Positions 8,987 through 59,317 are shown, numbered from the stretch's first letter. The stretch: DNA of 64,000 bases from Desulfarculaceae bacterium (GCA_037443445.1 JBBIOJ010000003.1:11816-75815); one strand, 5' to 3'. Numbers and translations are program-made. Notes: a model not told the origin generated them from the letters alone.

Positions 8987-10212
8987 GGAAAGCTCTCCAC
9001 CTCCACCCAATCTCCGCTATAGAGCCCTTCGCAAAGAGGATCGATCCGGATCAATCCATCCGCCCTGGAAAGATTCCCTATGAGACCCGAGGAGCCCAGC
9101 AAGGGACGGGCCCAGAGTTCCCCTTGCCTTTGTTCCAGGGCCACCCTCACATAATCCTCTCTGCCCTGGGCTGAGGCCAGGTTTCTGGTGAGCCTTGCCC
9201 GAAAAGGTCTGGGTCTGTTGATGTAGCTTCTTCCGCAAATTCTGTCCAACAAGGGCCTTCCCAAGAGATGGAGGATCACCAGAGCTGAGACCGGATGTCC
9301 AGGGAGTCCCAAGAAGGGTTTCCCACCCACCTCTGCCACCAAAGTGGGTTTGCCCGGCCTCACTGCAAGACCATGGGCCAGCACCTCAGCACCCGGCAAT
9401 GCCTGGAGGGCCTCCATGAGAAAATCCCTGGTACCGACTGAGCTTCCCCCCGAGACTATTACCGCATCGGCCGTCTCCAGGGCTTCCCTGAGGGCTTTGG
9501 AGAGCTGCTCCAGCCGGTCCGGAATTATTCCCATGGGGAGGGCTATTGCGCCCTCCAGGTTCACCCAGGAACAAACGGAGACCCCATTTACATCCCTTAC
9601 CTGGCCCGGAGCAGGCTCCGTGTGGACAGGCACCACTTCGTCCCCAGTGGAAAACACGGCCACCGATGGCTTTCGGTAAACCCAAAGCCTGGTTGTCCCC
9701 AGAGCCCCCAGGATCCCCAGATCCTGGGGCCTCAAGCTCCATCCCGAGGGCAGCACCTCCTGGCCTGCAGAGACGTCCTCCCCGGGTCTCACCACGTTCT
9801 CCCATGGAGCCACGCTCCTGTACACCTCCAGGGTTTCCGAGTCCAGTTGCTCTGCATGCTCTATCATGACAACAGAGTCCGCGCCTTCCGGCAGCATGGC
9901 GCCGGTGGCCACCCGCACGGCCTCCGAACCCCTCAGGGTCATCTGGGCGGGCTCCCCCATGCGCACTTCGCCCACTAGGCGAAGCAGGGCAGGCAGCCCC
10001 TCGCTGGCTCCAAAAGTGTCTTGGGCCTTTACAGCAAAGCCGTCCATGGTAGCACGCGGGAAACCCGGCAGGTCTTCCTTCGCCACCACCGTCCTGGAAA
10101 GCACTCTGCCCAGGGCATTCCAAAGCTCCACTTCCTCTTCCCCCGCCGGGGAAAATCTTTGGAATTCGGCCACCACCTCCTGGCGGCTTCTCACCCTGAA
10201 GAAGCGGATCAC
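8983..10212 (-). CDS. moeA: Molybdopterin molybdo/tungsto-transferase MoeA (second paralog)
   Basis: 409 aa with full-length MoeA similarity (ATMDGFAVKAQD, GAMLPEGADSVVMIE, GGSSVGTRD). In tandem with the MoeA-PBP fusion gene. Confidence 0.85.
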   Translation of the reverse strand: MIRFFRVRSRQEVVAEFQRFSPAGEEEVELWNALGRVLSRTVVAKEDLPGFPRATMDGFAVKAQDTFGASEGLPALLRLVGEVRMGEPAQMTLRGSEAVRVATGAMLPEGADSVVMIEHAEQLDSETLEVYRSVAPWENVVRPGEDVSAGQEVLPSGWSLRPQDLGILGALGTTRLWVYRKPSVAVFSTGDEVVPVHTEPAPGQVRDVNGVSVCSWVNLEGAIALPMGIIPDRLEQLSKALREALETADAVIVSGGSSVGTRDFLMEALQALPGAEVLAHGLAVRPGKPTLVAEVGGKPFLGLPGHPVSALVILHLLGRPLLDRICGRSYINRPRPFRARLTRNLASAQGREDYVRVALEQRQGELWARPLLGSSGLIGNLSRADGLIRIDPLCEGLYSGDWVEVESFP

Positions 10213-40921: not shown

Positions 40922-43273
40922 ATGCCAGGCCCTGTCCCTTGTTGCCCAAAGCCCCCCCCCGGTGCTTCCCTGGGGCCTCTCCTCCAGTTAAGACAACCAG
41001 CCTTGCTTCTCCTGGACCCCACCTTCAAGGTGATGGCTGCCAACGCGGGAGCTTCGCTGCTAAGCGGCTTCCAGCCAGCTGAGCTCATGGGCCTGGATTT
41101 CCTGTGCTTGTTCGAACCCTCTGAAAGGGAAAAAATACAAGAATGCATTGGCTCCGCTCCCCATGAAAAACAACTAGAGGTGCAGCTCCTGGCAGCCCAC
41201 GGCAGGTGTATTCCTGTGGGGATTTCCTGTGCAGCCGATGCAGGACAGGTCTGGGTGGCCCTTTGGGATCTTCAGCCCATGTTGGATTTGAGGAAGCTAG
41301 CCGATGAAGCCCGAGACAGAGCAGAGCGGATTTCCAACATGGGGGATATTGGGATCATAGTTTACGACCAGGATTTCCACATAGAGTTCGCCAACCAAAT
41401 GGCAGGGGAGATTCTGGGATGTCCGGCCCGGGAGCTGCTGGGAAAGGAAATAACGAGCTTCTTGGGCAAAGTGCAAAGCCTTCAACTGAGAAACTACCAC
41501 TCGGCTTTCCTCATGGAGCAGCAAACAAAGCTCAGGGCAGAGCTGCCTGTGGAGAGGCCTGACGGCACGCGCAAGCTGGTGGAAATATGCCTGTCCATGA
41601 CCAAAAACGAGCGCCGTGCCTCGCGCACCTATGCGTACATGAGGGACCTCACAGAGCGTGTAGAGATGGAAAACGAGCTCCGAAAGGCGAATCAGTTCTT
41701 GCAGAACGTGATCAGGAGCTCGGTGGATGGCATAATCGCTGCCGATATGAAAGGAAACATAATCATTTTCAACGAGGGGGCAGAGAGACTCCTGGGTTAC
41801 AGGGCAGAAGAGGTCATAGGAAAGATCCACATCACTCAGCTCTACCCGCCGGGTGTGGCCAAGAAGATCATGCGGCGGCTTCGTAGCGAGACTTACGGGC
41901 CCAAGGGGAAGCTGCCCACCACCCCCACCACCATCGTGGCCAAATCAGGGGAGCACATACCCGTGAGGATCTCCGCAGCCATCGTATACGAAGGCGAACG
42001 GGAGATAGCTTCAGTGGGCATCTTCAGGGACTTGAGGGAGCGCATCAAGATGCAGCAGCAGCTGGAGGAGACATACCGGCAGTTGCTGCACTCAGAGAAG
42101 CTGGCTTCCCTGGGAAAGCTGGCGGCTGGGGTGGCCCACGAGCTGAACAATCCCCTGGGAGGCATTCTCATGTACGCCAACATCCTGCTGGAACAGTCCG
42201 GCCAAGGACCCATGACCCATGACCTCAGGGAGATAGTGGAACAGGCCCTGAGATGCAAGGAGATAGTGCGGGGATTGCTGGATTTTGCCCGAAGGCGAGG
42301 GGAGGAGCTGGCCAGGGTTCAGCTCAACGAGGTGTTGGAGAAGTGCGTGGGGTTGATGAGCAAACAGGGCACCTTCCTGAACATCCAATGGGAAAAGCAG
42401 CTCCAATCAGATCTCCCCCAGGTGGCGGGGGAGCCGGACCAGTTGAGTCAGGTTTTCACCAATCTCATAGTGAATGCTGCGGATGCCATGGAAGGGAAAG
42501 GAACCCTGGGGATCAGAACCTGGGCCGAGGGGGAGCCCCCGCAGGTCCACGTGGAAATATCAGATACTGGGAGCGGCATTCCAGAGGAACACCTGCAGAG
42601 GGTCTTCGACCCTTTTTTCACCACAAAGGAGGTGGGCAAGGGCACGGGCTTGGGGTTGAGCATCGCATACGGGATTGTGCGGAGAATGGGCGGGGACATC
42701 CAGGTCAAGAGCAAGCTGGGCCAAGGCACAACTTTTCACCTGCGCTTTCCTCTGGAGCCTCCGGCTCAGCTTCCAGGGGAGGCCCAGGAGGGCTTGGCAG
42801 GTATTCGGGACAAGGAAGGAAGAGCGGTACAGGTGGTTCTGGCAGGGGAAAAGGGGCTCATGAGGCTCTTGTCTTTTTACGACTCCTTCGAACCCAAGGG
42901 GGCCTTCGAGGGACTCCCTCCCCCTCTCAAGAGGGAGAGGCGCAAATGGGTCATCGGGCTGATGGGCGGGTGGCGCAACTTCCTCCTACTGGACGGCGAG
43001 AGGGTGATAGGCCACGTGGGGGTGACCCTGGGGGAGTCGGATCTGGAGGAGGTAATCATCTTTCTGCACCAAAATTACAGGGGAAAAGGAATCGGTACCC
43101 TGGCTCTCAAGCACATAGGAGAACTCATGGCCCGGGAGGGCTGTACCAGGCTCTGGCTCACAGTGGAGTCCACCAACACGTCTGCCATCCGCTGTTTCCA
43201 AAAAGCGGGATTTCATTTCACATCCAGGGAGCTTGAGCCCCAAATGGAGATGGTGATGGATCTGGAAGGCTGA
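40922..43273 (+). CDS. PAS-domain sensor histidine kinase with C-terminal GNAT N-acetyltransferase domain (HK-GNAT fusion)
   Basis: Multiple PAS regions, HisKA (HELNNPLGGI), HATPase_c (GTGLGLSIAYGIVRRMGG), then ~150 aa with GNAT motif A/B (NYRGKGIGTLALKHIGELMAREGCTRLWLTVESTNTSAIRCFQKAGF). No receiver domain or adjacent response regulator. Start uncertain. Confidence 0.75.
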   Translation: MPGPVPCCPKPPPGASLGPLLQLRQPALLLLDPTFKVMAANAGASLLSGFQPAELMGLDFLCLFEPSEREKIQECIGSAPHEKQLEVQLLAAHGRCIPVGISCAADAGQVWVALWDLQPMLDLRKLADEARDRAERISNMGDIGIIVYDQDFHIEFANQMAGEILGCPARELLGKEITSFLGKVQSLQLRNYHSAFLMEQQTKLRAELPVERPDGTRKLVEICLSMTKNERRASRTYAYMRDLTERVEMENELRKANQFLQNVIRSSVDGIIAADMKGNIIIFNEGAERLLGYRAEEVIGKIHITQLYPPGVAKKIMRRLRSETYGPKGKLPTTPTTIVAKSGEHIPVRISAAIVYEGEREIASVGIFRDLRERIKMQQQLEETYRQLLHSEKLASLGKLAAGVAHELNNPLGGILMYANILLEQSGQGPMTHDLREIVEQALRCKEIVRGLLDFARRRGEELARVQLNEVLEKCVGLMSKQGTFLNIQWEKQLQSDLPQVAGEPDQLSQVFTNLIVNAADAMEGKGTLGIRTWAEGEPPQVHVEISDTGSGIPEEHLQRVFDPFFTTKEVGKGTGLGLSIAYGIVRRMGGDIQVKSKLGQGTTFHLRFPLEPPAQLPGEAQEGLAGIRDKEGRAVQVVLAGEKGLMRLLSFYDSFEPKGAFEGLPPPLKRERRKWVIGLMGGWRNFLLLDGERVIGHVGVTLGESDLEEVIIFLHQNYRGKGIGTLALKHIGELMAREGCTRLWLTVESTNTSAIRCFQKAGFHFTSRELEPQMEMVMDLEG

Positions 43274-43443: not shown

Positions 43444-44571
43444 GTGCAACAGCAAGCGGTTCGTGTTGTGAAAACCTATAGCATAGTCGTCCTGCCTGGG
43501 GATGGAATAGGACCTGAAATCGTAGAGGCTGCCTTGGAGGTCCTGGACACTCTTCAAGAAGTTCTAGGGGAATTTAGGCTTTCCTATCAGATTCATAGAG
43601 CCGGGGCCAGCCTTTATCAGGAGACGGGGGTGCCCATCGGAAAAGAGGCCATTGAGGCCTTTCGGGACTGCCGCGTTGCTCTCAAAGGCCCGGTCGGGCT
43701 CCCCACGGTTCGTAAGCCTGATGGTACCGAGGCGGGGCTTCTGGGGGGAATCCTGAGATGCGGATTCGATCTCTACGCCAATGTGAGACCCATCTGCCTT
43801 CTTCCCAAGGTGCCCGGCCCATTGGCCGGTATCACCCCCGAAGGGCTGGATTACGTGATCGTAAGGGAGAACACAGAAGGTCTGTACCTCTCCCGGGGGC
43901 TGGGATTGGTGACACCGCAGGCAGCAACGGACACCATGCTTATGACCGCCGTGGGGTGTGAAAGAATAGCCCGATTCGCCTTCCGTACGGCCTTGATGAA
44001 GAGGCGGGGGGCTCCAGAGGACGGCAAGAAAAGAGTCACACTCGTTGACAAGAGCAATGTTCTTAGATCTTTCGCCTTTTTCAGGAAGATCTACTTGAAA
44101 ATAGCCGAGGAGTTCCCAGAGGTGGAAGCGGAGTGCATGTACGTGGATGCGGCCTGCGCAGCACTGGTTAGTCGCCCGGGCCATTTCCAGGTGATCGTGA
44201 CCGAGAATCTCTTCGGAGATATACTTAGCGACCTCGGGGGGGCAACGGTGGGAGGGCTTGGCTTTTGTCCCTCTGGGAATATAGGGGAGACCCACGCATA
44301 CTTCGAACCAATCCATGGCTCGGCCCCGGACATAGCGGGCCGCGGGCTCGCAAACCCAACGGCCCAGATTCTTTCGGCCGCCATGATGCTGGATTACTTG
44401 GGAGAGCAGCGTGCGGCCGAGATGTTGCGCAATGCAGTTAGGAGGGTCTGGGCCGAAGCTCCACTGAGGCTGGAGGCAGGAGGGTGGGTCATAGGAGGAG
44501 CGCAGAGCGTGACCAGGGCAATAAGAGAGATGCTCCTTGCGGCCGAAGAGGGCGCCCATGAGATCCGCTGA
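43444..44571 (+). CDS. Isocitrate/isopropylmalate dehydrogenase-family protein (tartrate/D-malate or NAD-isocitrate dehydrogenase-like)
   Basis: SIVVLPGDGIGPEIVEAALEVLD N-terminus and conserved family blocks. 375 aa. Substrate not assignable from sequence. Confidence 0.7.
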   Translation: MQQQAVRVVKTYSIVVLPGDGIGPEIVEAALEVLDTLQEVLGEFRLSYQIHRAGASLYQETGVPIGKEAIEAFRDCRVALKGPVGLPTVRKPDGTEAGLLGGILRCGFDLYANVRPICLLPKVPGPLAGITPEGLDYVIVRENTEGLYLSRGLGLVTPQAATDTMLMTAVGCERIARFAFRTALMKRRGAPEDGKKRVTLVDKSNVLRSFAFFRKIYLKIAEEFPEVEAECMYVDAACAALVSRPGHFQVIVTENLFGDILSDLGGATVGGLGFCPSGNIGETHAYFEPIHGSAPDIAGRGLANPTAQILSAAMMLDYLGEQRAAEMLRNAVRRVWAEAPLRLEAGGWVIGGAQSVTRAIREMLLAAEEGAHEIR

Positions 44572-45976
44572 AGACCAACTCGTAGACCTGGAAAAGGAGT
44601 ATGGGGTTGTGGTGGTAGGAGGGGGCAACGCGGCTCTCTGTGCGGCCATGACGGCCCGGGAAACAGGAACCAGCGTACTGCTTCTGGAGTGCTCCCCCAA
44701 GGAGTTCAGGGGGGGCAACAGCCGCCACACCCGTAACTTGAGATTTCTTCACGAAGGCCCCACCTCCTACCTCACAGATGCGTACCTCGAGGATGAGTTT
44801 TGGGAAGACCTTATGTTGGTAACAGAGGGACAGACAACAGAACACTTGGCAAGACTCACCATTCGGGAGTCCAGGAATCTGGGGGAATGGATGGAGGCCC
44901 ACGGCTGTGTGTTCCAGCCCCCTTTGCGGGGAACCCTTCATCTATCCAGAACCAACGCCCATTTCCTGGGAGGGGGAAAGGCTCTCGTGAACGCTTACTA
45001 TGCCAGGGCCCTGAAAATAGGGGTGCGGGTTCTCTACGGGGCGGAGGCCAGGAGCATAGAACTTCTCGAAGGGAAGTTCTCCTCCCTGGTCGTGCGGCAC
45101 AACGGCTCTGAGCACCGCATCAAAGCAAAGGCCGCGGTCATGGCCTCAGGGGGTTTCCAGGCAGATCTCGGCTGGTTGAGGCAGTACTGGGGGGATGCGG
45201 CCGAGAATTTCCTCATCCGAGGCACGCCTTTCAACAGAGGCCATATGCTCAGAGCGCTTCTAGCTCTCGGCGCCAAGCCTGTCGGGGATCCCCGCCAGTG
45301 CCATGCCGTGGCCATAGACGCAAGAGCCCCCAAATTCGACGGAGGCATTGTGACAAGGCTGGATTGCGTGCCATTTGGCATCGTGGTGAACCGGGATTGC
45401 CGCCGCTTTTACAACGAAGGGGAGAACTTCTGGCCCAAGCGTTACGCCATATGGGGGAGACTGGTGGCCCAGCAACCCGGACAGATAGCGTACTGTCTCA
45501 TTGATTCCAAATCATTGAACCTGTTCATGCCGTCTGTGTTTCCACCCCTTGAAGCCAATTCCATAGGGGAACTGGCCCGAAACCTGGGGCTGGACCCCCG
45601 AGCTCTGGAAAATACTGTCAGAACTTACAACGCAGCTGTCCGCCCGGGCAGGTTCGATCCCACTGCCTTGGATGATTGCCACACCGAGGGCTTGGAGCCT
45701 GAGAAGACTCACTGGGCTCGCCCCTTGGATTCACCTCCCTTTTACGGCTATCCTTTGAGGCCCGGGATCACCTTCACATATCTCGGAGTCACGGTAGACG
45801 ATCGGGCCCGGGTGATCCTCCAGGACAATCAGCCGCTGCCCGGCATCATGGCTGCAGGGGAGATAATGTCAGGGAACATCCTGGGGAAAGGATACCTGGC
45901 TGGGTTCGGGATGACAATCGGAACAGTTTTCGGTCGGATAGCGGGAAGGGAGGCTGCACTTTATGCCCGCGGATGA
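44558..45976 (+). CDS. tcuA: FAD-dependent tricarballylate dehydrogenase TcuA
   Basis: VVVVGGGNAALCAAMTARE FAD motif and full-length TcuA-like organisation. Overlaps the downstream tcuB. Confidence 0.75.
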   Translation: MRSAEDQLVDLEKEYGVVVVGGGNAALCAAMTARETGTSVLLLECSPKEFRGGNSRHTRNLRFLHEGPTSYLTDAYLEDEFWEDLMLVTEGQTTEHLARLTIRESRNLGEWMEAHGCVFQPPLRGTLHLSRTNAHFLGGGKALVNAYYARALKIGVRVLYGAEARSIELLEGKFSSLVVRHNGSEHRIKAKAAVMASGGFQADLGWLRQYWGDAAENFLIRGTPFNRGHMLRALLALGAKPVGDPRQCHAVAIDARAPKFDGGIVTRLDCVPFGIVVNRDCRRFYNEGENFWPKRYAIWGRLVAQQPGQIAYCLIDSKSLNLFMPSVFPPLEANSIGELARNLGLDPRALENTVRTYNAAVRPGRFDPTALDDCHTEGLEPEKTHWARPLDSPPFYGYPLRPGITFTYLGVTVDDRARVILQDNQPLPGIMAAGEIMSGNILGKGYLAGFGMTIGTVFGRIAGREAALYARG

Positions 45977-47066
45977 CCTGCTCAGGGAAGCTCAGCGAGT
46001 GATGACCATCTGCAATGCCTGCAGATACTGCGAGGGATTCTGCGCGGTATTCCCGGCCATGGAGCTCAGGAGGGTCTTTGCGCCCCGGGACCTGAAGTAC
46101 CTTGCCAACCTATGCCACAACTGCCGGGGCTGCTATTACGCATGCCAGTACGCTCCTCCGCACGAGTTCATGCTAAACGTTCCCAAGACCCTAGCTCAAC
46201 TGCGGCGGGAGACTTACAAGGAGTTCGTGAGGCCTTCGGCCCTGGGCCGGTTGTTCGAGAAAAACGGCAGAGTTTTGGCATTGCTCACAGCAGGGTGTCT
46301 GCTTCTGGCCCTGGGTCTCACCTTGGGGTTTCAGCCCAGGGAACTGGTTCTGGGCGTACATCAAAGGGAAAGGGCGTTTTACAAGGTGATACCCTACGAA
46401 TTTATGGTGTGGCCCTTCTTGGCTGTGGGTTGTGCAGTTTCGGTTTTCCTGATAAACGGGATCATCTCCTTTTGGAGAGGCATTGGGGGGCGACCGAGAG
46501 AGTTGTGGGATTGGGCCGCGAACCTGAGGGCTTTGGGAGATGCGCTAAAGCTGACCTATCTGGGTGGAGGGGGGCAGGGGTGTAATTATCCTGACGAGAG
46601 TTTCAGCAACGCTCGCAGGTGGCTCCACCAGACTGTGTTTTACGGGTTTTTCCTGACGGGGGTCTCAACGGCTTTGGCGGCCTTCTACGACCACTTCCTG
46701 GGGAGAATGGCTCCTTATCCCTTCTGGAGCTGGCCAGTGGTGCTTGGCGGCCTGGGAGGATTGGGAATCATGGCCGGGGGCCTTGGGCTGCTATATCTGA
46801 AAGCCAAGGTGGACCGGGCTCCAGCCGATGAGGGAGCCTTAAGCATGGACATCGGTTTCACGGTCTTGCTGCTCTTGACTGCCTTAAGCGGAATCCTGCT
46901 CTTGCTTTTCAGGGACACCCGGGCCATGGGGCTTCTGCTGGCAGTACACTTGGGCTTTGTAGGGGCTTTTTTCCTGAGTTTACCCTGCGGCAAGTTTGTG
47001 CATTCAGTATATCGTTACGCGGCCTTGGTGCGAAACGCCCAGGAGAGAATACGGGAAGGGAAATAG
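45963..47066 (+). CDS. tcuB: Tricarballylate utilization protein TcuB (membrane Fe-S electron-transfer protein)
   Basis: N-terminal Cys clusters (CNACRYCEGFCAVFP; CHNCRGCYYACQYAPPH) followed by TM helices, as in TcuB/CitB. Confidence 0.75.
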   Translation: MPADDLLREAQRVMTICNACRYCEGFCAVFPAMELRRVFAPRDLKYLANLCHNCRGCYYACQYAPPHEFMLNVPKTLAQLRRETYKEFVRPSALGRLFEKNGRVLALLTAGCLLLALGLTLGFQPRELVLGVHQRERAFYKVIPYEFMVWPFLAVGCAVSVFLINGIISFWRGIGGRPRELWDWAANLRALGDALKLTYLGGGGQGCNYPDESFSNARRWLHQTVFYGFFLTGVSTALAAFYDHFLGRMAPYPFWSWPVVLGGLGGLGIMAGGLGLLYLKAKVDRAPADEGALSMDIGFTVLLLLTALSGILLLLFRDTRAMGLLLAVHLGFVGAFFLSLPCGKFVHSVYRYAALVRNAQERIREGK

Positions 47067-47222
47067 CTGCTGGGATTTCAGCAGCAAGGCAAAGGGTACC
47101 GTACGGTACCAAGGCTTTTGAGATCCACTGAGGGTTGCTTTGAAACGGACAGCTTGGGTGGGTCTGATCCGACTCAAGGGAACAATAAACAGACCTGATC
47201 ACGCTTAGGATGGGATGGAAAC

Positions 47223-49157
47223 ATGGGACAGAACTTGGTCGAGAAAATACTGGGTTCGCATCTGGTTGCAGGCAAATACATTCCGGGTGAGGAGATCCGA
47301 ATAAGGATTGACCAGGCCTTGGTGCACGACGCCACAGGAACCATGGCATTTCTGGAGTTCGAGGCAATGGGTCTAAAGGGGGTCAAAACGGATCTCTCGG
47401 TGGTCTATGTGGACCACAATACCCAGCAAATCGGCTTCGAGAACAACGACGATCACCTTTATCTCCAAAGCGTGGCAGCCCGCTTCGGTGCGGTTTACTC
47501 CAGGGCCGGCAACGGTATCTGTCACCAGGTTCATCTGGAACGCTTTGGGAAGCCGGGCACCACGCTTTTGGGCGCGGACAGCCACACCCCCACAGGCGGC
47601 GGCATAGGGCAGTTGGCAATGGGGGCCGGGGGATTGGACGTAGCCGTGGCCATGGGCACAGGCCAATACACCTTGATGTGTCCCAGGGTTTATCTGGTCA
47701 AGCTTCATGGCAGGCTTCCAGAGTGGGTAACGGCCAAGGATCTGGTCTTGAAGATGCTTTCCATATTGAGCACCAAGGGGAATGTGGGAGTGGTCCTGGA
47801 ATACGGCGGGGAAGGCGTGAGGAGCTTGAGCGTGCCTGAGAGGGCCACCATCGCCAACATGGGCGCCGAGATGGGGGTGACAACCTCTCTTTTCCCCTCT
47901 GACCAGCAGACGCGCCGCTTCCTAAGAGCCCAGGGCCGCGAGCAGGATTGGGTTGAGCTCAAGGCCGACCCTGAGGCCTCTTACGACCGGATAATAGAGC
48001 TTAATCTGGAGGAGATCGAGCCTTTGGTGGCCGTGCCGCATAGCCCGGGAAACGTCAAGAGACTCTCGCAGCTGGAGGAAATCATTGTGGATCAGGTCTG
48101 CATAGGTTCCTGCACCAATTCTTCTTACAGGGACTTGATGGCGGCCTCGGCAATCCTGAAGGGGAAAAGGATCCACCCTCGAGTCAGCCTGGGCGTGGCC
48201 CCGGGCTCGCGGCAGGTGATGCTTGCCCTGGCCCAGGAGGGAGCGCTCACGGAGCTGCTCAAGGCAGGCGCGAGGATAAAGGAATGCGCCTGCACTTTCT
48301 GCATCGGCAACGAGTTTTCCCCCAGGAGTGGGGGCGTCTCGGTCAGGACCTCTAACAGGAATTTTGAAGGCCGGTCGGGCACCAAGGATGCGCGGGTGTT
48401 TCTCACCAGCGTTGAAGCGGCAGCCGTGGCCGCCCTGACCGGGCGGTTGGTGGATCCGCGAAGCCTGGGGATGGCTTACCCCAAAGTGAGGGAGCCCGAG
48501 GCCTATGTGGTGGACGAAAACATGTTCATATTCCCTGAGCCAGAGATGAGAGACACCCCTATCTTTAGAGGCCCCAACATAGGCAACCCCCCGCAAAACG
48601 AGGAAATGCCAGAATCGTTAAAGGGAGAGGTGATGGTGAAGTTGGGCGACAAGGTGACAACCGACCACATCACACCTGCAGGCCCGAGGCTCAAGTATAG
48701 ATCCAACATAGCCAAGTACTCGCAGTTCGTGTTCGAGAACCTGGATCCCACGTTTCCAACCAGATGCCTGGAGAACAAGGCAAGAGGAATCCACAACCTA
48801 ATAGTGGCCGGGGAGTCCTACGGTCAGGGATCCAGTAGGGAACACGCGGCAATATGTCCCATGTTTCTGGGCGTGAAGGCCGTAATAGCGAAATCCTTCG
48901 AGAGAATACACTTGGCAAACCTGGTCAATTTCGGCATCCTGCCTCTTCTTTTCAAAGAAGTCTCCCGATACGAGAGTATTGAGCAGGGGGACAGGCTTTC
49001 CTCTGAGAACTGGAAAGAGGCCCTCAAGAAAGGCCAGTCAATCCATATCCTGAACCACAGGACAGGAGAGTCTTTCGAGTGCGTTTACAATCTTTCCCAG
49101 ACGCAGCGGGAGCTGGTCTTGGCAGGGGGACTGCTGAACAGGATTGGATCCAGATAA
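47223..49157 (+). CDS. acn: Aconitate hydratase (short ~640-aa aconitase-family form)
   Basis: Aconitase catalytic-domain motifs (VHDATGTMAFLEF, GICHQVHLERF, DSHTPTGGGIGQLAMGAGG, CIGSCTNSSY, SNRNFEGR) plus the swivel domain. Confidence 0.85.
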   Translation: MGQNLVEKILGSHLVAGKYIPGEEIRIRIDQALVHDATGTMAFLEFEAMGLKGVKTDLSVVYVDHNTQQIGFENNDDHLYLQSVAARFGAVYSRAGNGICHQVHLERFGKPGTTLLGADSHTPTGGGIGQLAMGAGGLDVAVAMGTGQYTLMCPRVYLVKLHGRLPEWVTAKDLVLKMLSILSTKGNVGVVLEYGGEGVRSLSVPERATIANMGAEMGVTTSLFPSDQQTRRFLRAQGREQDWVELKADPEASYDRIIELNLEEIEPLVAVPHSPGNVKRLSQLEEIIVDQVCIGSCTNSSYRDLMAASAILKGKRIHPRVSLGVAPGSRQVMLALAQEGALTELLKAGARIKECACTFCIGNEFSPRSGGVSVRTSNRNFEGRSGTKDARVFLTSVEAAAVAALTGRLVDPRSLGMAYPKVREPEAYVVDENMFIFPEPEMRDTPIFRGPNIGNPPQNEEMPESLKGEVMVKLGDKVTTDHITPAGPRLKYRSNIAKYSQFVFENLDPTFPTRCLENKARGIHNLIVAGESYGQGSSREHAAICPMFLGVKAVIAKSFERIHLANLVNFGILPLLFKEVSRYESIEQGDRLSSENWKEALKKGQSIHILNHRTGESFECVYNLSQTQRELVLAGGLLNRIGSR

Positions 49158-49187
49158 GAAAAGGGGAGAACCCCCATTGGAGAAACC

Positions 49188-50402
49188 TTGGACATGGAAA
49201 AAATAAACGTGAAGAGCCCCATAGTTGAGATTGACGGCGACGAGATGACCCGCATCATCTGGGGGATGATCAAGGAGAAACTGATATTCCCTTTTCTGGA
49301 TGTAAAGCTGGAATACTACGATCTGGGAATAAGAAACAGAGACCAGACCGAGGACAGAGTCACCAGAGAAGCCGCAGAGGCCATAATACGCCACGGGGTG
49401 GGCGTTAAGTGCGCCACCATAACTCCGGACCAAGAAAGAGTAGCCGAGTATGGTCTCAAGAAGGCTTGGCCCTCTCCCAATGCCACCATCCGTTCGGTGC
49501 TGGACGGCACAGTCTTTAGAAAGCCCATCCTGGTGAAGAACATCCGCCCTGCGGTCAGGAGCTGGAACAAGCCCATCGTCATAGGGCGCCATGCTTACGG
49601 AGACATTTATAAGGCGGTGGAGTTGGTGGTGGAAGGCCCTGGGAAAGTGGAGCTGGTTTACACGGGAGAGGACGGCGAGGAGACTCGTCTCCTGGTGCAC
49701 AGGTTCCAGGGCCCGGGGGTGGTAATGGGTCTTCACAATCTGGAGAAATCCATAAGATCCTTTGCCAAGGCTTGCATAAATTATGCACTCGGGGAGAGGA
49801 TGGAGATCTGGTTCTCCATGAAGGACACCATAAGCAAGAAGTACCATGCTTACTTCAGGGAAATCTTTTCCCAGGAGGTGGGGGCAAGGGAAGAGGAGTT
49901 TGCCAGGGCCGGCACAACTTACCGGTACCTGCTCATAGACGATGCGGCAGCCCAGATCATGAAAAGGGAGGGAGGGATCCTCTGGGCTTTGAGCAATTAC
50001 GATGGGGATGTGTTCTCGGATGTGGTTGCGGCCGGATTCGGAAGCCTCGGCATGATGACCTCGGTGCTGGTCTCCCCGGACGGGAAGTATGAGTTCGAGG
50101 CCGCTCACGGAACCGTGCGTCGTCATTATTACGAACACCTCAAGGGGAATCCCACAAGCACCAATTCGGTAGCCTCCATCTTTGCCTGGAGCGGGGGCAT
50201 CAAGAAAAGGGGGGAATTGGACGGCACACCTGAGGTGATAGGCTTCGCCGAGCGACTGGAGAGAGCCGTGATCGAGTGCATAGAGGAAGGAATTGTGACC
50301 AAGGACCTGGTCCCGCTGATGGAGCCCCGCCCTATTGGTTTCCAGACGACCGAAGGGTTCTTGGAGGCCGTGGCAGGAAGATTGGGGAAGTCTCGGGAGT
50401 GA
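49188..50402 (+). CDS. icd: NADP-dependent isocitrate dehydrogenase (eukaryote-like ~400-aa type)
   Basis: Full-length similarity to type-I NADP-IDH ([25 protein letters not shown]..., NYDGDVFSD). 404 aa. Confidence 0.85.
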
Positions 50403-50555
50403 AAGGGGTGGGTCAGCTCAACCTGCGGGGCCACAGAGGGTTGACATGGGCACTGGGTTTTTCCCATACTCCCCGGCGGGGAATCCCGGGGCTGCAAGGG
50501 CAAAAAGGAAAGTCTTTGAGGGCGGCCGGAGCCTGGTTAGGCCTGGCCACACCGA

Positions 50556-51539
50556 TTGAGGAAGGAGGGCGGAGAAATGAGGAGGGCTTTGTGCTTCATG
50601 GCTTTTCTATCCCTGCTTCTTGGTTTGGGAGGGATTGCTGGGGCGGATTACCCAGAGCGGGCCATCGAGATCCTGGTACCCTTTGGTGCCGGGGGGGGCA
50701 GCGACACTGCCGCAAGGGCACTCGTAGAAGGGATCAAGCCCCAACTGAAGTACGGGGTCGTGGTGACCAACATGCCTGGAGGGGGCGCCACAAAGGGCAT
50801 GCTCCACGTTTCCCAGCAGCCTCCCGACGGATACACGGTCCTTGCAGTCACCACTTCCCACCTCATAGACGCGGCCAACCCCAAGACCCGCGCCCACATC
50901 CTAAGGGACTTTGATCCCTTGTGCCGAATCCAGTGGGACACCTCTTCGGTGACCATAGCCGGGAATTCCAAGTTCAAGAGCTTTGCGGATCTGGTGGAAT
51001 TCGGCAGGAAGAACCCCAAGGCCTTGAAGTTCGCGGGCACTTCCCCTGGGGGCTGGTCCGAGATACAGACGGTGGCCTTCTTCAAGAAGGCCGGGGTGGA
51101 GGTCACTTTCGTACCTTTTGACTCAGGCGCCGAGATCAAGGCGGCCATACTGGGAGGGCACATAACCGGGGCCGTGGAAGAGCTGGCCGAGACCCTCCCC
51201 CTGATACAGGCCGGAAAGCTCAAGTCACTGTGCGTGATAATGGAGAAGCGCCACCCAGCTCTTCCGGATGTGCCCTGCTCCAAGGAGCTGGGGATAGATT
51301 ACACCCACGGCCTGATGCGTGCCTGGGCAGTCAAGAAGGGGACCCCGCCGGAGCGTCAGGCCTTTCTCCTGGATGTAATAAAGAAGGCCCTGGAACATCC
51401 CATGTACCTCAAGTTTGTGAAGGATAACCACCTGGATGCGAGGCCCGGGTTTCTGGGTCCCGAAGAGACGAGGAAGTACTGGGAGGAGCAGGTGGCCTTT
51501 TTTACGGGAGTTCTAAAAGAACTGGGATACATCAAGTAG
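50556..51539 (+). CDS. tctC: Tripartite tricarboxylate transporter substrate-binding protein TctC (Bug family)
   Basis: Signal peptide, YPERAIEILVPFGAGGGSD, and Bug/TctC fold blocks. 327 aa. Confidence 0.85.
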   Translation: MRKEGGEMRRALCFMAFLSLLLGLGGIAGADYPERAIEILVPFGAGGGSDTAARALVEGIKPQLKYGVVVTNMPGGGATKGMLHVSQQPPDGYTVLAVTTSHLIDAANPKTRAHILRDFDPLCRIQWDTSSVTIAGNSKFKSFADLVEFGRKNPKALKFAGTSPGGWSEIQTVAFFKKAGVEVTFVPFDSGAEIKAAILGGHITGAVEELAETLPLIQAGKLKSLCVIMEKRHPALPDVPCSKELGIDYTHGLMRAWAVKKGTPPERQAFLLDVIKKALEHPMYLKFVKDNHLDARPGFLGPEETRKYWEEQVAFFTGVLKELGYIK

Positions 51540-51580
51540 GCTCGCACAAGAGCTGTCTCGGGCCCCAAGCGTTTCTCAGA

Positions 51581-52087
51581 ATGAAAAGAAAAGAAACCGT
51601 TTTCTTCGGGGTCTGTCTGGCCTTTTTCGGCTTCATGTTGTATGAGGCCTTGGGGCAGATAGGCCGTGGCCGGGCAGGCGAAGTGGGAAGCGGATTCTGG
51701 CCGCTTCTGACCCTAAGTGGTTGTGCCCTGCTAAGCGGGGTGCGCTTCATCTACTGCCTCAGGCGGGAGGGCCGCGAAAGCTCGAGCCTCCCAAGGGAGG
51801 AAGAGCAAGCCTCAGAAAGGCCTCAGGTGAGGCAAAATGCGGTCCTTTTCACCATGGCCTCCTTCCTGGCCTATCTTATCGCCATCCCATGGATCGGCTT
51901 CATATTGGCCACCCTTCTGTTCGTCCCTGCTGTGAGCGTTTCCCTAGGCGAGAGGCGCTGGGGGGTGCTGGCAGTCTCACCTTTTGTGCTGACCGCCGTC
52001 ATAGTGGCGGTGTTCGCCAAGTTCATCACCATACCTTTCCCCAGGGGGGCGGGGCTGTTTGCCGACTTCAGCAGGCTTTTCTATTGA
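51581..52087 (+). CDS. tctB: Tripartite tricarboxylate transporter small membrane subunit TctB
   Basis: 4-TM small protein between tctC and tctA. 168 aa. Confidence 0.7.
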   Translation: MKRKETVFFGVCLAFFGFMLYEALGQIGRGRAGEVGSGFWPLLTLSGCALLSGVRFIYCLRREGRESSSLPREEEQASERPQVRQNAVLFTMASFLAYLIAIPWIGFILATLLFVPAVSVSLGERRWGVLAVSPFVLTAVIVAVFAKFITIPFPRGAGLFADFSRLFY

Positions 52088-52102
52088 GGGGAACTTTGAC
52101 CC

Positions 52103-53593
52103 ATGGAGCATTATCTGCAAGCTTTGGCAACGGTCTTGCAGCCCCAGAATCTAACGGCCATGGTGCTTGGCTCTCTTTGGGGACTCCTGGCCGGGGCACT
52201 TCCCGGGATAAGCACCTCCATGGGAGTGGTACTCCTTCTCTCCTTTACTTACACCTTGGCGCCCATGACTGCCTTCGTACTTCTGGTAGGGGCATACCTG
52301 GGGGGCATCACAGGCGGGTCCATCACCTCCATACTGTTCGGAATTCCGGGAGAGCCCTCCTCTGTGCCCACGGTGATAGAGGGCCATGCCCTGGCCAAGC
52401 AGGGCAAAGCCACCTACGCCATGTGGGTATACCTTCTTTGCTCTATTTTCGGGGGGCTCTTCAGCGTGGTGGTCATGATTCTGGCTACACCCCTCATAGC
52501 CGATTTCGCCCTTCGCTTCGGGCCCTCTGAATACTTCGCCCTGACCGTCTTGGGGCTAAGCGTGGTATCGGGTCTCTCTGGGGGTTCCATGCTCAAGGGC
52601 TTCATATCCTGTTTTTTCGGGCTTTTTCTGGCAACAGTGGGCACGGACGGTATCACCGGCGAGGAGCGCTTCACCTTCAACACAGTAACGCTTCTTGGAG
52701 GCATCAACTTCGTGGTGGCCATGGTGGGGCTGCTGGCGGTCTCGGAGATATTCATTGAGGCAGGAGAACTGTTCCAGGAATACAAGGGCAGCGTTGAATA
52801 CCGGGGCCTGCTCAAGGAGCTTCCTCCGCTATCTCTTTTTAGGCAGTATCTCTTGACCATGATCCGCTCCCCCATCATAGGCACCATCGTGGGGGCATTG
52901 CCCGGGGCCGGAGCCACCATCGCGGCATTTCTTTCATACGGGGAGGCCGCCCGCACAGCCAAGAGAGAGCCCGAGAAGTTCGGAAAGGGCGCGGTGGAGG
53001 GTCTCATGGCCGCCGAGTGCGCCAATAACGCCTCTACGGGCGGTTCCATGACCATCCTGCTTTCCCTGGGAATCCCCGGGAGCAACACCACGGCCATGCT
53101 TGTGGCCGCATTTATGATCCACGGCATGCAGCCGGGGCCCCTTCTGCTTTCCACCAGGCCAGAGGTGGTATATGGGATCTTCGTGAGTATGCTGCTCACC
53201 AACCTGCTTCTCTTGGTGCTGGTAGGGGTGAGTATAAGGCTTTTCCTGGAGTTGAACAGACTGCCTTACTCCGTCTTCTCGGCGGCTATACTGATTCTGT
53301 GTGTGATCGGGGCCTACGGACTGAATAACAGCGTGGACGATGTCTTCTTGATGTTTCTATTCTCCATGGTCGGCTATTTCATGCGCAAGTTCGGGGTGCC
53401 TGTGGCACCCTGCATCCTGGGGCTCGTGCTGGGGGATCTGGCGGAACTCTCCTTTCGAAGGGCGCTTCTTATAGCCGACGGAAGCCCTTTGGGTCTGGTG
53501 AGCAGTCCCATAAGCAGCCTGCTGCTGGCAGGAGCTCTGTTTTCCATCCTTTATCCCTTCTTCAAGAGACCGAAGATGATCAGCGGGGCCTGA
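52103..53593 (+). CDS. tctA: Tripartite tricarboxylate transporter permease TctA
   Basis: ~500-aa polytopic permease with TctA-family conserved GxPGxxS motifs (GIPGEPSS; GIPGSNTT). Confidence 0.85.
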   Translation: MEHYLQALATVLQPQNLTAMVLGSLWGLLAGALPGISTSMGVVLLLSFTYTLAPMTAFVLLVGAYLGGITGGSITSILFGIPGEPSSVPTVIEGHALAKQGKATYAMWVYLLCSIFGGLFSVVVMILATPLIADFALRFGPSEYFALTVLGLSVVSGLSGGSMLKGFISCFFGLFLATVGTDGITGEERFTFNTVTLLGGINFVVAMVGLLAVSEIFIEAGELFQEYKGSVEYRGLLKELPPLSLFRQYLLTMIRSPIIGTIVGALPGAGATIAAFLSYGEAARTAKREPEKFGKGAVEGLMAAECANNASTGGSMTILLSLGIPGSNTTAMLVAAFMIHGMQPGPLLLSTRPEVVYGIFVSMLLTNLLLLVLVGVSIRLFLELNRLPYSVFSAAILILCVIGAYGLNNSVDDVFLMFLFSMVGYFMRKFGVPVAPCILGLVLGDLAELSFRRALLIADGSPLGLVSSPISSLLLAGALFSILYPFFKRPKMISGA

Positions 53594-54749
53594 CACCGGG
53601 GATCCTTGTCTCGGGCACAAGCACCCAACCTTCCATTAAGCGACGTGCAGTCCTTCCCAAACGGGCTTCAAGGTAGTCGCGGCGGCCTTCTTTTTCTTTC
53701 ATCAGAGCTTCTATTTCCATCCTCCCGGAGGGATGTCCTAATATTATCTTGCCTGCCGTCTCCCTCCTTTTCCCAAGCACCTGGTGGACCACACTGCCCT
53801 CAGTCATAGCCGCCGCGGCCGTGCATATTGCCCCTGTGACGGCATATGCGCGGTGAAGATTTCCCATGGACATCATCCTCGCCAGAAGGTGGATGGATTG
53901 TCTCCTGACTGTGCTCCCGAGAAGGGTCCTGTATGTCTTAGGAGCTGCAATCAAGGCTATCTTGGGCACTGCTTGGCTTCTATGGCTGGCCTCACTTCGG
54001 CCCTTTGCAAAGCCAAGCCTCACGGCGGCCTCAGCTCGTATGGCTTCAAGCTTGCCCTTGAGTTCTTCATTGCCATCAATCTCTTCTATCTCGGTCCCCT
54101 GCAGTCCTAGATCCACAGCCCTCACAAAGACCACAGGATTGCCCGCATCCAGGATGGACAGATCCAGCTTGCCAACGCCGTCCACCTTCCAGGTGTCCAG
54201 CGCGTTTCCCGTAGGAAGCAGCTTGCCCGTCACAGAGCCCCCAGGATCAAGAAATCTAAGGTTTATTTTTGAGCCGGTGCCAGGCACACCATCGATTGAG
54301 TAGTTTCCTATGGGATTGTACTTTCCTCCCTGCACAGGAACCTCTGCCAGGATGGTTTTTCCGGTGTTCAGCTGAAGGATGCGCACCGTTGTGACTGGCT
54401 CACGCACCTCCAGGATTCCCTCGTCTATGGCGAAGGGCCCCACGGCCGAAGAGAGGTTCCCGCAGTTTCCTTTGAAGCTTACAAGCGGCCTGTCGATGGA
54501 AACCTGGCCAAAGAGGTATTCCACGTCGTGGTCGGGGCTCTTAGCGGTCCTGATTATGGCCACCTTGCTTGTGACAGAAGTGCCTCCTCCCATTCCATCC
54601 AACTGCCTGCCGCTTGGATCTGGGCTGCCGTATGCTGCCAGAATCAACGCGTCCCGGCTGGCCGCATCCTGGGGGAGATCCTTTTCGTGGAAAAACAGCC
54701 CCTTGCTGGTTCCCCCTCTCATTAACACTGCTGGTATTCTCATCTGCAT
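53580..54749 (-). CDS. prpF: PrpF/AcnD-accessory family isomerase (2-methylaconitate / aconitate cis-trans isomerase-like)
   Basis: MRIPAVLMRGGTSKG N-terminal signature and family-wide similarity. Start taken at MQMRIP. Confidence 0.8.
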   Translation of the reverse strand: MQMRIPAVLMRGGTSKGLFFHEKDLPQDAASRDALILAAYGSPDPSGRQLDGMGGGTSVTSKVAIIRTAKSPDHDVEYLFGQVSIDRPLVSFKGNCGNLSSAVGPFAIDEGILEVREPVTTVRILQLNTGKTILAEVPVQGGKYNPIGNYSIDGVPGTGSKINLRFLDPGGSVTGKLLPTGNALDTWKVDGVGKLDLSILDAGNPVVFVRAVDLGLQGTEIEEIDGNEELKGKLEAIRAEAAVRLGFAKGRSEASHRSQAVPKIALIAAPKTYRTLLGSTVRRQSIHLLARMMSMGNLHRAYAVTGAICTAAAAMTEGSVVHQVLGKRRETAGKIILGHPSGRMEIEALMKEKEGRRDYLEARLGRTARRLMEGWVLVPETRIPGVRPR

Positions 54750-58178: not shown

Positions 58179-58207
58179 TTGGATCTCCCCCAGGCTTGCC
58201 GTATAAT
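58179..58207 (+). promoter_or_regulatory. Putative sigma-70 promoter (TTGGAT -17 nt- TATAAT) for the Pta-N-like gene
   Basis: Perfect -10 hexamer TATAAT at 58202-58207 and a -35-like TTGGAT at 58179-58184 with 17-nt spacing, about 40 nt upstream of the GTG start and GGGGAGAGG Shine-Dalgarno sequence. Confidence 0.4.
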
Positions 58208-58246
58208 GGCGGCCGAGAGGTAAGGAAATCCTTGAGGGGAGAGGTC

Positions 58247-59317
58247 GTGAGGCTCTTGTTCATAGGTTCCACAGGGGACCATGCAGGCCAAAGCCTTGTG
58301 GCTTGGGCCATTGCCCGGAGCCTAGGAGAAAAGGGGCTGAGATTGGGTTTCCTAAAGCCCCTTTTCCCCACAGAGGATTCGGAAGGGGGTTTCCCTCTGG
58401 ATGAGGACTGCGAATTGTTCAGGCAGGTCCTGGCCTGCCAAGAACCCTTGGAAATCACCTGTCCTGTTTTCCGGGGAAAAGAGGGCTCAGGGAGGCTTTC
58501 AGCCGAGGAGGTGGCTTGCGGGATTCTCCCCGTCCTGGAGAAAAGTTGCCAGGAGAAAGATCTCGTCCTGATCATGGGCAGGAAGGAGATCTTCCTGGAC
58601 GACCCGGCTTTCCCGGTATCTGACGTGTCCCTGGCGCAGGCCCTGGAGGCCCGGTTCCTGCTTGTGACCCGTTACCTGGACATGCCGCGCACTCTTTACA
58701 GCCTGCTTTCTGTTTTCTCGCTTCTGGGCTCGAGGCTCAAGGCAGTGATAGTGAACCGAATCCCACCCCAGCAGGTGGAGCAAGTCTGCCATGGGATCCG
58801 CTCCAGGCTCCCTGGCCAGGGGGTGCCCCTGGTCATTGCCGTCCCGGAGGACCCTTTTCTTTCGGCCAGAACCCTGGCCGAGGTGGTGGAAGCCACAAGA
58901 AGCGAGTTGCTCCTGGGTCAGGAGAAGGCAGGGGAGCTGGTGGCAAGCTGGAGCATGGGGGCAAGCCACCTATTGAGGGGAGACATGGCTCTCTTCAAAA
59001 GGTTCTACAACCGAATCCTGCTGTTGGGTCCTCAGGAGCCGGATGCAGAAGAGCCTGCCCGACCTGTGGGGGTGATTCTCACTGCCGGGCGAAGGCCCCC
59101 CCCGGTTCTTCTCGAACAGGCCAGTAAAATGGAGCTCCCTTTGCTGTTGTGCTCCTTGGATACCTTTGCCACGCTGGAGCGACTGGAAAGGACACCCCCA
59201 AGACTCTCCTTGCAAAGTGAGCCAAAGGCCGAGAGGATGAGCACTTGGCTGGCTGCCGGGGGGCAGCTAAAAGAACTTTGGCCCTCCCTGGGGCTTGATC
59301 TGCCCAGGAGGGGATAA
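58247..59317 (+). CDS. Stand-alone phosphotransacetylase N-terminal-domain protein (AAA_26/BioD-like plus DRTGG domains; no Pta catalytic domain)
   Basis: VRLLFIGSTGDHAGQSLVAWAIARSL (BioD-like P-loop) and C-terminal DRTGG-like block (VGVILTAGRRPPPVLLEQASKMELPLLLCSLDTFAT). GTG start at 58247 with Shine-Dalgarno sequence; the tracked TTG start at 58196 lies inside the -10 box. Confidence 0.6.
   Translation: MRLLFIGSTGDHAGQSLVAWAIARSLGEKGLRLGFLKPLFPTEDSEGGFPLDEDCELFRQVLACQEPLEITCPVFRGKEGSGRLSAEEVACGILPVLEKSCQEKDLVLIMGRKEIFLDDPAFPVSDVSLAQALEARFLLVTRYLDMPRTLYSLLSVFSLLGSRLKAVIVNRIPPQQVEQVCHGIRSRLPGQGVPLVIAVPEDPFLSARTLAEVVEATRSELLLGQEKAGELVASWSMGASHLLRGDMALFKRFYNRILLLGPQEPDAEEPARPVGVILTAGRRPPPVLLEQASKMELPLLLCSLDTFATLERLERTPPRLSLQSEPKAERMSTWLAAGGQLKELWPSLGLDLPRRG

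Follow-up and report, generated by a model that had tools for sequence, protein, structure and literature searches.

What would a set of tricarboxylate uptake and oxidation genes do in a bacterium that appears to be anaerobic, and where would the electrons go? The question is raised by the region 43.4-54.8 kb of a 64,000-nucleotide stretch of DNA from a Desulfarculaceae bacterium (GCA_037443445.1 JBBIOJ010000003.1:11816-75815), the whole of which (64 kb) is called here the window. The region encodes a dehydrogenase of the isocitrate/3-isopropylmalate dehydrogenase family (hereafter DH1), the TcuA and TcuB proteins of tricarballylate oxidation, a short aconitase, an NADP-dependent isocitrate dehydrogenase (IDH), a tripartite tricarboxylate transporter (TTT) and a convergent isomerase of the PrpF family. 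Tricarballylate and trans-aconitate are abundant plant-derived acids; to our knowledge, no catabolism of them has been characterised outside aerobes and facultative bacteria. Finding such a pathway conserved in an anaerobic lineage of sulfate reducers poses a bioenergetic question, that is, whether a succinate-like oxidation is driven onto a low-potential quinone or whether the reaction runs in reverse. Our findings make it probable that the cluster is a catabolic operon for C6 tricarboxylates (tricarballylate and trans-/cis-aconitate), vertically inherited in an uncultured lineage of Thermodesulfobacteriota, and they single out the DH1 clade and its PrpF partner for biochemical assignment.

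Gene content and predicted pathway

Calling of open reading frames (ORFs) in the window revealed nine co-directional ORFs and one convergent ORF in this region; the ten genes described in an earlier note on this DNA were all found in their places, and ORF calls and family scans bore out every family assignment (Table 1). Family membership was tested against Pfam thresholds and the curated equivalog cut-offs of NCBI (NCBIfam), and all functions are deduced from sequence and genomic context. TcuA exceeds two curated equivalog cut-offs and is 60-65% identical to the annotated TcuA of Rhizobium and Shinella, while TcuB, encoded by the adjoining gene, passes the equivalog model TIGR02484. Grouping of the two proteins with unrelated flavoprotein or CitB families, an outcome that the earlier note had itself raised, did not occur. 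The short aconitase and the NADP-IDH each lie above two curated cut-offs, and TctC, TctB and TctA, encoded by consecutive genes and all above their Pfam thresholds, make up a complete TTT set. The PrpF-like protein shares ~45% identity with annotated PrpF genes and, when aligned to the Shewanella protein SoPrpF (2pvz), conserves the equivalents of the catalytic residues Lys73 and Cys107, both reported as essential in PrpF (PMC5690661). SoPrpF interconverts cis- and trans-aconitate (PMC5690661), as do the PrpF-family proteins TarA and TbrA (PMC11495376), and the product of the gene in the cluster most likely catalyses the same reaction.

Table 1. Features of the window, with positions counted from its first nucleotide; scores are in bits, followed by the curated cut-off where there is one. 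The cluster and the gene upstream of it come first, other features after.
Feature	Position	Strand	Match	Start
PAS-PAS-HisKA-HATPase-GNAT gene	40922..43273	+	Pfam domains	
DH1	43444..44571	+	Pfam Iso_dh (PF00180) 308	alternative start GTG 43468
TcuA	44558..45976	+	NF006130 694 vs 369; TIGR02485 597 vs 373	ATG 44558 likely, in agreement with the L081 gene call; longest ORF from TTG 44537
TcuB	45963..47066	+	TIGR02484 398 vs 247	
Short aconitate hydratase, 644 aa	47223..49157	+	NF005558 890 vs 612; TIGR01342 842 vs 719	
Eukaryote-type NADP-IDH	49194..50402	+	NF006156 626 vs 335; TIGR00127 518 vs 397	ATG 49194, GGAGAA motif just before; longer ORF from 49188
TctC, periplasmic binding protein	50577..51539	+	Pfam TctC PF03401 121	ATG 50577, AAGGAGG just before; longer ORF from 50556
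TctB, small membrane subunit	51581..52087	+	Pfam TctB PF07331 73	
TctA, large membrane subunit	52103..53593	+	Pfam TctA PF01970 473	
PrpF-family isomerase	53580..54749	-	Pfam PrpF 443	ATG 54749, GGGAGG motif upstream; longer ORF to 54818
Aldehyde:ferredoxin oxidoreductase	3695-5557	-		
MoeA fused to periplasmic-binding-protein-like domain	7064-9010	-		
Sigma-70-like site, TTGACA-18-CATACT	50441-50470	+		
Half MFS transporter, 203 aa	54904-55515	-	MFS_1 profile positions 26-179 of 347	
ORF, 225 aa	57898-58575	-	no Pfam match	
ORF with AAA_26/DRTGG domains	58196-59317	+		
ORF, 271 aa	62795-63610	-	no Pfam match	

These assignments suggest a route whose chemistry is mostly textbook. The TctCBA transporter would import a tricarboxylic acid and TcuA, with FAD, would dehydrogenate tricarballylate to aconitate, whereupon TcuB, through two 4Fe-4S clusters and its membrane histidines, would hand the electrons to a quinone, presumably menaquinone, and from there to an anaerobic respiratory chain, a step probably aided by proton-motive force, as is the oxidation of succinate in organisms with menaquinone. 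The PrpF-family isomerase would equilibrate trans- and cis-aconitate, the cluster aconitase would convert cis-aconitate to isocitrate, and the NADP-IDH would oxidise isocitrate to 2-oxoglutarate. Tricarballylate and trans-aconitate are inhibitors of aconitase. Since accumulation of tricarballylate inhibits isocitrate dehydrogenase in Salmonella (review PMC8593673), there is a plausible rationale for a dedicated aconitase and IDH within the cluster, and both would probably offset substrate inhibition of the housekeeping enzymes as well. DH1, in turn, would be an obligatory, clade-specific, NAD-dependent beta-decarboxylating dehydrogenase acting on a (2R)-3-substituted malate that it does not recognise in the way that IDH recognises isocitrate. 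The earlier note had proposed a complete route from imported tricarballylate or trans-aconitate to 2-oxoglutarate, and the succession of import, TcuAB, PrpF (where needed), aconitase and IDH is indeed well supported as far as homology and conserved synteny go.

The first dehydrogenase, DH1

DH1 belongs to the Iso_dh family but falls below every NCBIfam equivalog cut-off, its best curated scores (in bits, against the cut-off) being 297/410 for LEU3_arch, 281/393 for 3-isopropylmalate dehydrogenase (IPMDH; PRK03437), 260/353 for leuB, 271/510 for IDH and 266/470 for tartrate dehydrogenase (TIGR02089). When aligned to the solved structures of IPMDH, IDH and homoisocitrate dehydrogenase (HICDH), it displays all the catalytic residues (three Arg, Tyr, Lys and three Asp) and the cofactor motif SAPDIAG, which is of the NAD type. 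The loop that faces the gamma-substituent (TEAGLLGGILR) keeps the Glu and the Leu-Leu pair of IPMDH with an insertion of two glycines, and it has neither the Ser-x-Asn of IDH nor Arg85, the homoisocitrate determinant of HICDH. A full catalytic set and an NAD motif, combined with an IPMDH-like loop devoid of the IDH residues, point to an active NAD-dependent decarboxylase other than a conventional IDH, and DH1 is very probably an oxidative decarboxylase of a (2R)-3-substituted malate.

A single clade takes in the orthologues at least 61% identical to DH1 and is the one linked to TcuAB and PrpF (neighbour-joining tree without bootstrap), next to a sister clade with 53-60% identity from Dehalococcoidia, Burkholderiales and Micromonospora that is not linked to these genes. 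Both clades have in common the signature DGTEAG(L/M/V)LGGxLR, whose insertion occurs in no other aligned member of the family, and the family-specific residues Arg90, Ser150-Arg151 and Ala240, whereas at position 239 the TcuAB-linked clade has Ala and the sister clade has Gln. Public records name these genes "3-isopropylmalate dehydrogenase" or "family protein", so that a correction of the annotation would be useful.

By the scores given above and by motif, the conventional identities were rejected for DH1: canonical IDH (no Ser-x-Asn), HICDH (no Arg85), tartrate/D-malate dehydrogenase (the SLWGLLL loop of the tartrate dehydrogenase type is absent) and LeuB/IPMDH (loop insertion, and no leuCD nearby).

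It is nevertheless conceivable, if unlikely, that the cluster has in DH1 another isocitrate dehydrogenase, one that uses NAD and perhaps escapes inhibition by tricarballylate, in which case no further chemistry would be needed. The inhibition of IDH by tricarballylate in Salmonella (PMC8593673) would give such an enzyme a purpose, none of the catalytic residues is missing from DH1 and its cofactor motif is of the NAD type, the minimal cluster among the related loci (L087, Table 2) has DH1 and no IDH, and the family-specific residues Arg90 and Arg151 would in principle be suited to binding a carboxylate. However, DH1 has Glu at the position that matches Ser113 of IDH and lacks the Ser-x-Asn motif, all its scores against IDH equivalogs are about half of the cut-offs, and in the neighbour-joining tree (no bootstrap) its family groups with tartrate-dehydrogenase-like and not with IDH-like sequences.

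The neighbours of DH1 in other genomes offer hints about this substrate. In one group of loci, type E in Table 2, the gene just before DH1 encodes a LarA homologue (L001 1-576, L092 216-1490, L093 1-1122 and L089 1811-3076); this protein is nearest to the Ni-dependent (nickel-pincer) malate racemase LarAH6, with 445 bits against a cut-off of 500, and its position suggests that an epimerisation at C2 may feed DH1. In type C loci a 2-hydroxyacid dehydrogenase of the Ldh_2 family is co-operonic with TcuAB in two gene orders (L084 14264-16210, L086 14499-16123 and L172 11260-12321), and so is an RraA-like protein in L084 and L086. A relative of DH1 with 49% identity adjoins the branched-chain 2-oxoacid dehydrogenase complex (BCKDH) in Paracoccus. 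Together, the LarA, Ldh_2/RraA and Paracoccus contexts hint at a substrate resembling malate, of which the C2 epimer occurs as well.

Neither TcuAB nor PrpF was found in the contexts of the sister clade and of the 49% plasmid relatives, which are heterogeneous (IspH/AIRS, 4HBT thioesterase, BCKDH) and give weak hints. In the Burkholderiales sister loci (53-58% identity) a 4HBT-type thioesterase directly precedes the DH1 homologue (L014 9540-9998, L019 9529-9984, L022 9547-9999, L107 3710-4162 and L109 2359-2811). In the vicinity there is a gene resembling either acyl-CoA dehydrogenases (L014 and three related loci) or AMP ligases (L016, L019 and others). The enzyme family of DH1 would seem to serve another pathway here, one linked to CoA.

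Recurrence of the gene set in related genomes

DH1 was searched against genomes and metagenomes, the contigs encoding it were read, and all cluster proteins were mapped onto these loci by tblastn. The search covered 20 loci of the DH1 clade, many of them short contigs and, where GC was high, with mechanical ORF calls; PrpF is present in 15 and TcuAB in 13 of them. The gene set recurs in metagenome-assembled genomes (MAGs) of Thermodesulfobacteriota/Desulfobacterales in at least five arrangements (Table 2). Its recurring members are TcuAB, DH1, PrpF and a transporter for tricarboxylates of the TTT or DASS type, to which IDH and aconitase may be added. The aconitase is of two unrelated types, the short form in some arrangements and a bona fide AcnA (1366 bits) in others, and this speaks for the function itself having been selected into the cluster. 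Chance does not account for the adjacency of these genes. The tcuAB genes of Rhizobium have neither PrpF nor DH1 nearby, and our literature search found no paper linking TcuAB with an IPMDH-family enzyme, with PrpF or with sulfate reducers.

Table 2. Arrangements of the gene set in the loci of the DH1 clade.
Type	Loci	Arrangement
A	window, L081, L085, L090	identical order
B	L171, L173, L082	IDH-TctABC, divergent from PrpR(sigma-54)-PrpF-DH1, then TcuBA convergent; PrpF/DH1 overlap 4 nt
C	L084, L086, L172	AcnA-IDH-TctBA-substrate-binding protein / PrpR-PrpF-DH1-AbrB / Ldh_2-RraA-TcuAB
D	L087	minimal: TctABC-TcuBA / PrpR-PrpF-DH1
E	L001, L092, L093, L094, L089	LarA-like-DH1 / TcuBA / DASS transporter-PrpF

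A partly coincidental neighbourhood, in which aconitase and IDH are housekeeping genes of the tricarboxylic acid (TCA) cycle that happen to lie beside a tcu/tct operon, is distinctly unlikely. The cluster does lie among core genes, type D and E loci have neither aconitase nor IDH, and only 64 kb are visible, so that further copies of the two genes are not countable. Against this, IDH adjoins TctA in three different arrangements, two unrelated types of aconitase were recruited in different lineages, and the same-strand gaps of 30-156 nt fit a single operon.

Besides the recurring set, a half-size (165 aa) membrane protein of the AbrB family (PF05145), which may be a transporter, is repeatedly found beside DH1 or PrpF (L084 11131-11628, L086 11131-11628, L088 5165-5659, L089 8226-8723 and L172 16473-16970). 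In L082 (8118-17162) and L083, DH1 is followed by toxin-antitoxin pairs (RHH/PIN, BrnA-like, PhdYeFM/ParE, MazEF) and a DDE transposase.

Electron acceptor and direction of electron flow

The earlier note had left the electron sink as a question. In the literature TcuA figures as the tricarballylate dehydrogenase and TcuB as an FADH2:quinone oxidoreductase (PMC10468695), and an Fe-S/haem nature of TcuB is also given in the title of Lewis & Escalante-Semerena 2007, as cited in PMC8593673. In the window, TcuB has two CxxCxxCxxxC motifs and the residues His52, His67, His222, His329 and His347, all invariant in 14 orthologues including the TcuB of Rhizobium; hydrophobic segments are present, and the protein resembles QmoC (85 bits). 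TcuA is predicted to be an FAD-dependent dehydrogenase with tricarballylate as its presumed substrate, and TcuB a membrane Fe-S protein, probably with haem, that would re-oxidise TcuA and pass the electrons to the quinone pool. From the architecture of TcuB and its published role, a membrane quinone is the most economical electron sink, and this is likely to be menaquinone, as presumed from the phylum.

Several observations weigh against the pathway as drawn. The textbook route has no need of DH1, which is nonetheless the most tightly linked gene; given this linkage, the true range of substrates may be wider or different. Two loci of the DH1 clade (L091 and L100) have neither TcuAB nor PrpF on their visible side, and TcuB, at 397 against 524 bits, misses the stricter subfamily cut-off NF011607. 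The convergent gene, which the earlier note had called an aconitate isomerase, holds its place in the PrpF family by its Pfam score, but its 371 bits do not reach the cut-off of the PrpF equivalog TIGR02334 (440.55), and it is only ~33-34% identical to the PrpF-domain proteins of a B. thuringiensis plasmid, which we take to be the aconitate isomerase TbrA. It does not reach the equivalog for oxalomesaconate (OMA) tautomerase either (346 vs 440), and its matches in the PDB are near equal, with 325 bits for the 3-methylitaconate isomerase Mii (3g7k) and 322 bits for SoPrpF; by sequence it is thus closer to PrpF/Mii than to the Bacillus PrpF-domain proteins. As to the sink, the genes of the 64-kb window identify no respiratory chain. 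Succinate oxidation is uphill in menaquinone organisms and needs proton-motive force, and by analogy the oxidation of tricarballylate with menaquinone is expected to be uphill too, which makes the reverse reaction, the reduction of aconitate, a live alternative.

In such a respiration or fermentation of aconitate, TcuAB would work in reverse as a membrane-bound menaquinol:aconitate reductase, comparable to fumarate reductase, and the reaction would end in tricarballylate. The oxidative branch, made up of PrpF, aconitase, IDH and DH1, would draw reductant, as NAD(P)H, from a second aconitate, the NAD-type DH1 feeding the respiratory chain and representing a new specificity of the IPMDH family tied to PrpF. 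Among solved structures TcuA is nearest to soluble fumarate reductases and urocanate reductase, enzymes whose physiological role is reductive, the host looks anaerobic (aldehyde:ferredoxin oxidoreductase, Thermodesulfobacteriota relatives), the reductive direction is thermodynamically easier with menaquinone, DH1 carries the NAD-type SAPDIAG motif while the IDH is of the NADP type, and our literature search turned up no oxidation of tricarballylate by sulfate reducers. If true, this would identify the type of enzyme behind the microbial reduction of trans-aconitate to tricarballylate. We nonetheless give it little credence, since TcuA and TcuB are close orthologues of oxidative proteobacterial enzymes, a transporter dependent on a binding protein marks an importer while no exporter is evident, and the pocket of DH1 is not IDH-like.

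Just as unlikely is a pathway generalised to substituted succinates or branched dicarboxylates, which would explain the coexistence of two Iso_dh-family genes. There, TcuAB would act on 2-substituted succinates (tricarballylate, methylsuccinate, alkylsuccinates), PrpF would be the isomerase for the maleate, fumarate or itaconate that bears the substituent, a hydratase of the aconitase family would yield the 3-substituted malate, and the last step would fall to IDH in the carboxymethyl case and to DH1 in the non-carboxylate cases, such as 3-methylmalate to 2-oxobutyrate. Its appeal lies in the loop of DH1, which keeps the IPMDH Glu and Leu-Leu without the carboxylate-binding residues of IDH and HICDH, in the NCBIfam scores of DH1, nearest to the cut-offs for models of the IPMDH type, in the match of the PrpF-like protein to 3-methylitaconate isomerase as well as to PrpF, and in the branched-chain complex beside the 49% relative and the malate-racemase-like LarA before DH1 in type E loci. 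Against it, the orthology of TcuA points to tricarballylate, bona fide aconitases and NADP-IDH were selected into the clusters, and there is neither an IPMI-type hydratase nor a sign that such substrates are imported. The oxidation of imported tricarballylate through TcuAB to aconitate and 2-oxoglutarate remains the reading that we prefer.

Comparison with characterised systems

The cluster is the known tcu pathway in a new arrangement. Like tcuRABC of Salmonella enterica (found also in Acinetobacter baylyi, and as tcuAB in Rhizobium), it has orthologous tcuA and tcuB genes, adjacent and overlapping, and the same predicted chemistry, from tricarballylate to cis-aconitate and on to enzymes of the TCA cycle. 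It differs in lacking the LysR-type TcuR (there is no LysR gene in the neighbourhood) and TcuC, import being assigned to TctCBA instead, in the addition of the PrpF-family isomerase, aconitase, NADP-IDH and DH1, and in its host, an apparent strict anaerobe in which the acceptor would probably be menaquinone and not an aerobic chain.

With tarRAB of Bacillus velezensis and tbrAB of B. thuringiensis (PMC11495376) it shares the clustering of a PrpF-superfamily isomerase with a tricarboxylate transporter, and trans-aconitate is routed there to cis-aconitate and the TCA cycle (PMC11495376), as predicted here. However, the transporter in the window is a TTT and not of the MFS type, of which there is a remnant only, a LysR-type TarR is missing, and the isomerase is coupled to TcuAB and DH1. 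The 2-methylcitrate cycle of Shewanella and Ralstonia (prpR-prpBC-acnD-prpF) resembles the cluster in its PrpF, ~45% identical with catalytic Lys and Cys kept, and the related clusters, not the window, in the PrpR_N-type sigma-54 activator. By contrast, prpB, prpC and acnD were found neither in the window nor in the related loci, whose aconitases are of the AcnA or the short type and not AcnD.

The transporter genes match those of the Salmonella TctCBA/TctDE system in their three components and in the order tctC-tctB-tctA, but without an adjacent TctDE, and the ligand of TctC is a prediction. Finally, DH1 resembles the IPMDH/tartrate/D-malate dehydrogenase branch in fold, catalytic Arg/Tyr/Lys/Asp, NAD motif and the Glu and Leu-Leu of the loop, and differs from it by the two-glycine insertion, the motif DGTEAG..GG..LR, Ser150-Arg151 and Ala240 (Ala239 being restricted to the TcuAB-linked clade) and, from the IPMDH branch, in its genomic partners, TcuAB and PrpF rather than LeuCD.

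Predicted operon structure and regulation

DH1 and TcuA overlap by 14 nt, as do TcuA and TcuB, and the remaining intergenic gaps in the cluster measure 15-156 nt, a spacing that fits an operon; TctA and the PrpF-family gene are convergent and share 14 nt at their 3' ends. The stop/start overlaps of DH1/TcuA/TcuB, and those of PrpF/DH1 in other loci, suggest co-translation, and co-expression of the cluster is predicted from this layout. Rfam and tRNA scans gave no match inside the cluster, and the counts from terminator and promoter scans were no different from those in shuffled sequence. The sole noteworthy site of these scans, a sigma-70-like sequence in the 153-nt gap before tctC (Table 1), is possibly a promoter, internal to the operon, that serves the transporter genes.

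As the earlier note had stated, no cognate regulator of the tctDE type is present in the 64-kb window, and the gene upstream of the cluster is real: it encodes a cytoplasmic PAS-PAS-HisKA-HATPase histidine kinase with a C-terminal GNAT acetyltransferase (Pfam), an unusual combination of domains. The same fusion occupies the same position only in the closest type A relatives, L081 (83% identity; 7724-9823) and L085 (75%; 7114-9468), and is absent in L090. It is a possible candidate for the operon regulator; no receiver or response regulator was found nearby. A PrpR_N/PAS/sigma-54 activator stands beside PrpF-DH1 in related clusters, and the 64-kb window has no PrpR homologue. Upstream of DH1 there was no sigma-54 (-24/-12) promoter, pattern matches being at chance level, and an alignment of four type A loci with a search for inverted repeats revealed no operator conserved beyond the closest relative.

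Inheritance, host and genomic surroundings

The earlier note had spoken of an island. In the sense of horizontal transfer this does not hold: GC (0.55-0.59) and GC at third codon positions (0.62-0.73) fall in the same range in the cluster and in the flanking core genes, and the region from ribE, SHMT, fab and yceD to the operon is syntenic in L081, L085 and, partly, L090. Protein identities to L081 are 93-98% inside the cluster and 84-92% outside, and those to L085 are 58-93% and 71-85%, respectively. Horizontal acquisition was rejected, as the composition equals that of the flanks, the region is syntenic and the cluster proteins are comparably diverged to the flanking core; on this evidence the cluster is chromosomal and vertically inherited. 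Its nearest named relatives are MAGs of Thermodesulfobacteriota.

The upstream flank consists of core genes (ribE, SHMT, fabG/D/H, yceD). Elsewhere in the window, two ORFs gave no Pfam match (Table 1), of which the one of 225 aa overlaps an opposite-strand ORF and is perhaps not a genuine gene. Also encoded in the window are an aldehyde:ferredoxin oxidoreductase, which fits an anaerobe, and a fusion of MoeA to a periplasmic-binding-protein-like domain, both of which would be markers of anaerobic tungsten/molybdenum metabolism. Downstream, between the PrpF-family gene and an acetyl-CoA synthetase, an ORF covers about half of an MFS transporter and is likely a truncated remnant; the PrpF-type aconitate isomerases TarA and TbrA, for their part, come paired with MFS transporters.

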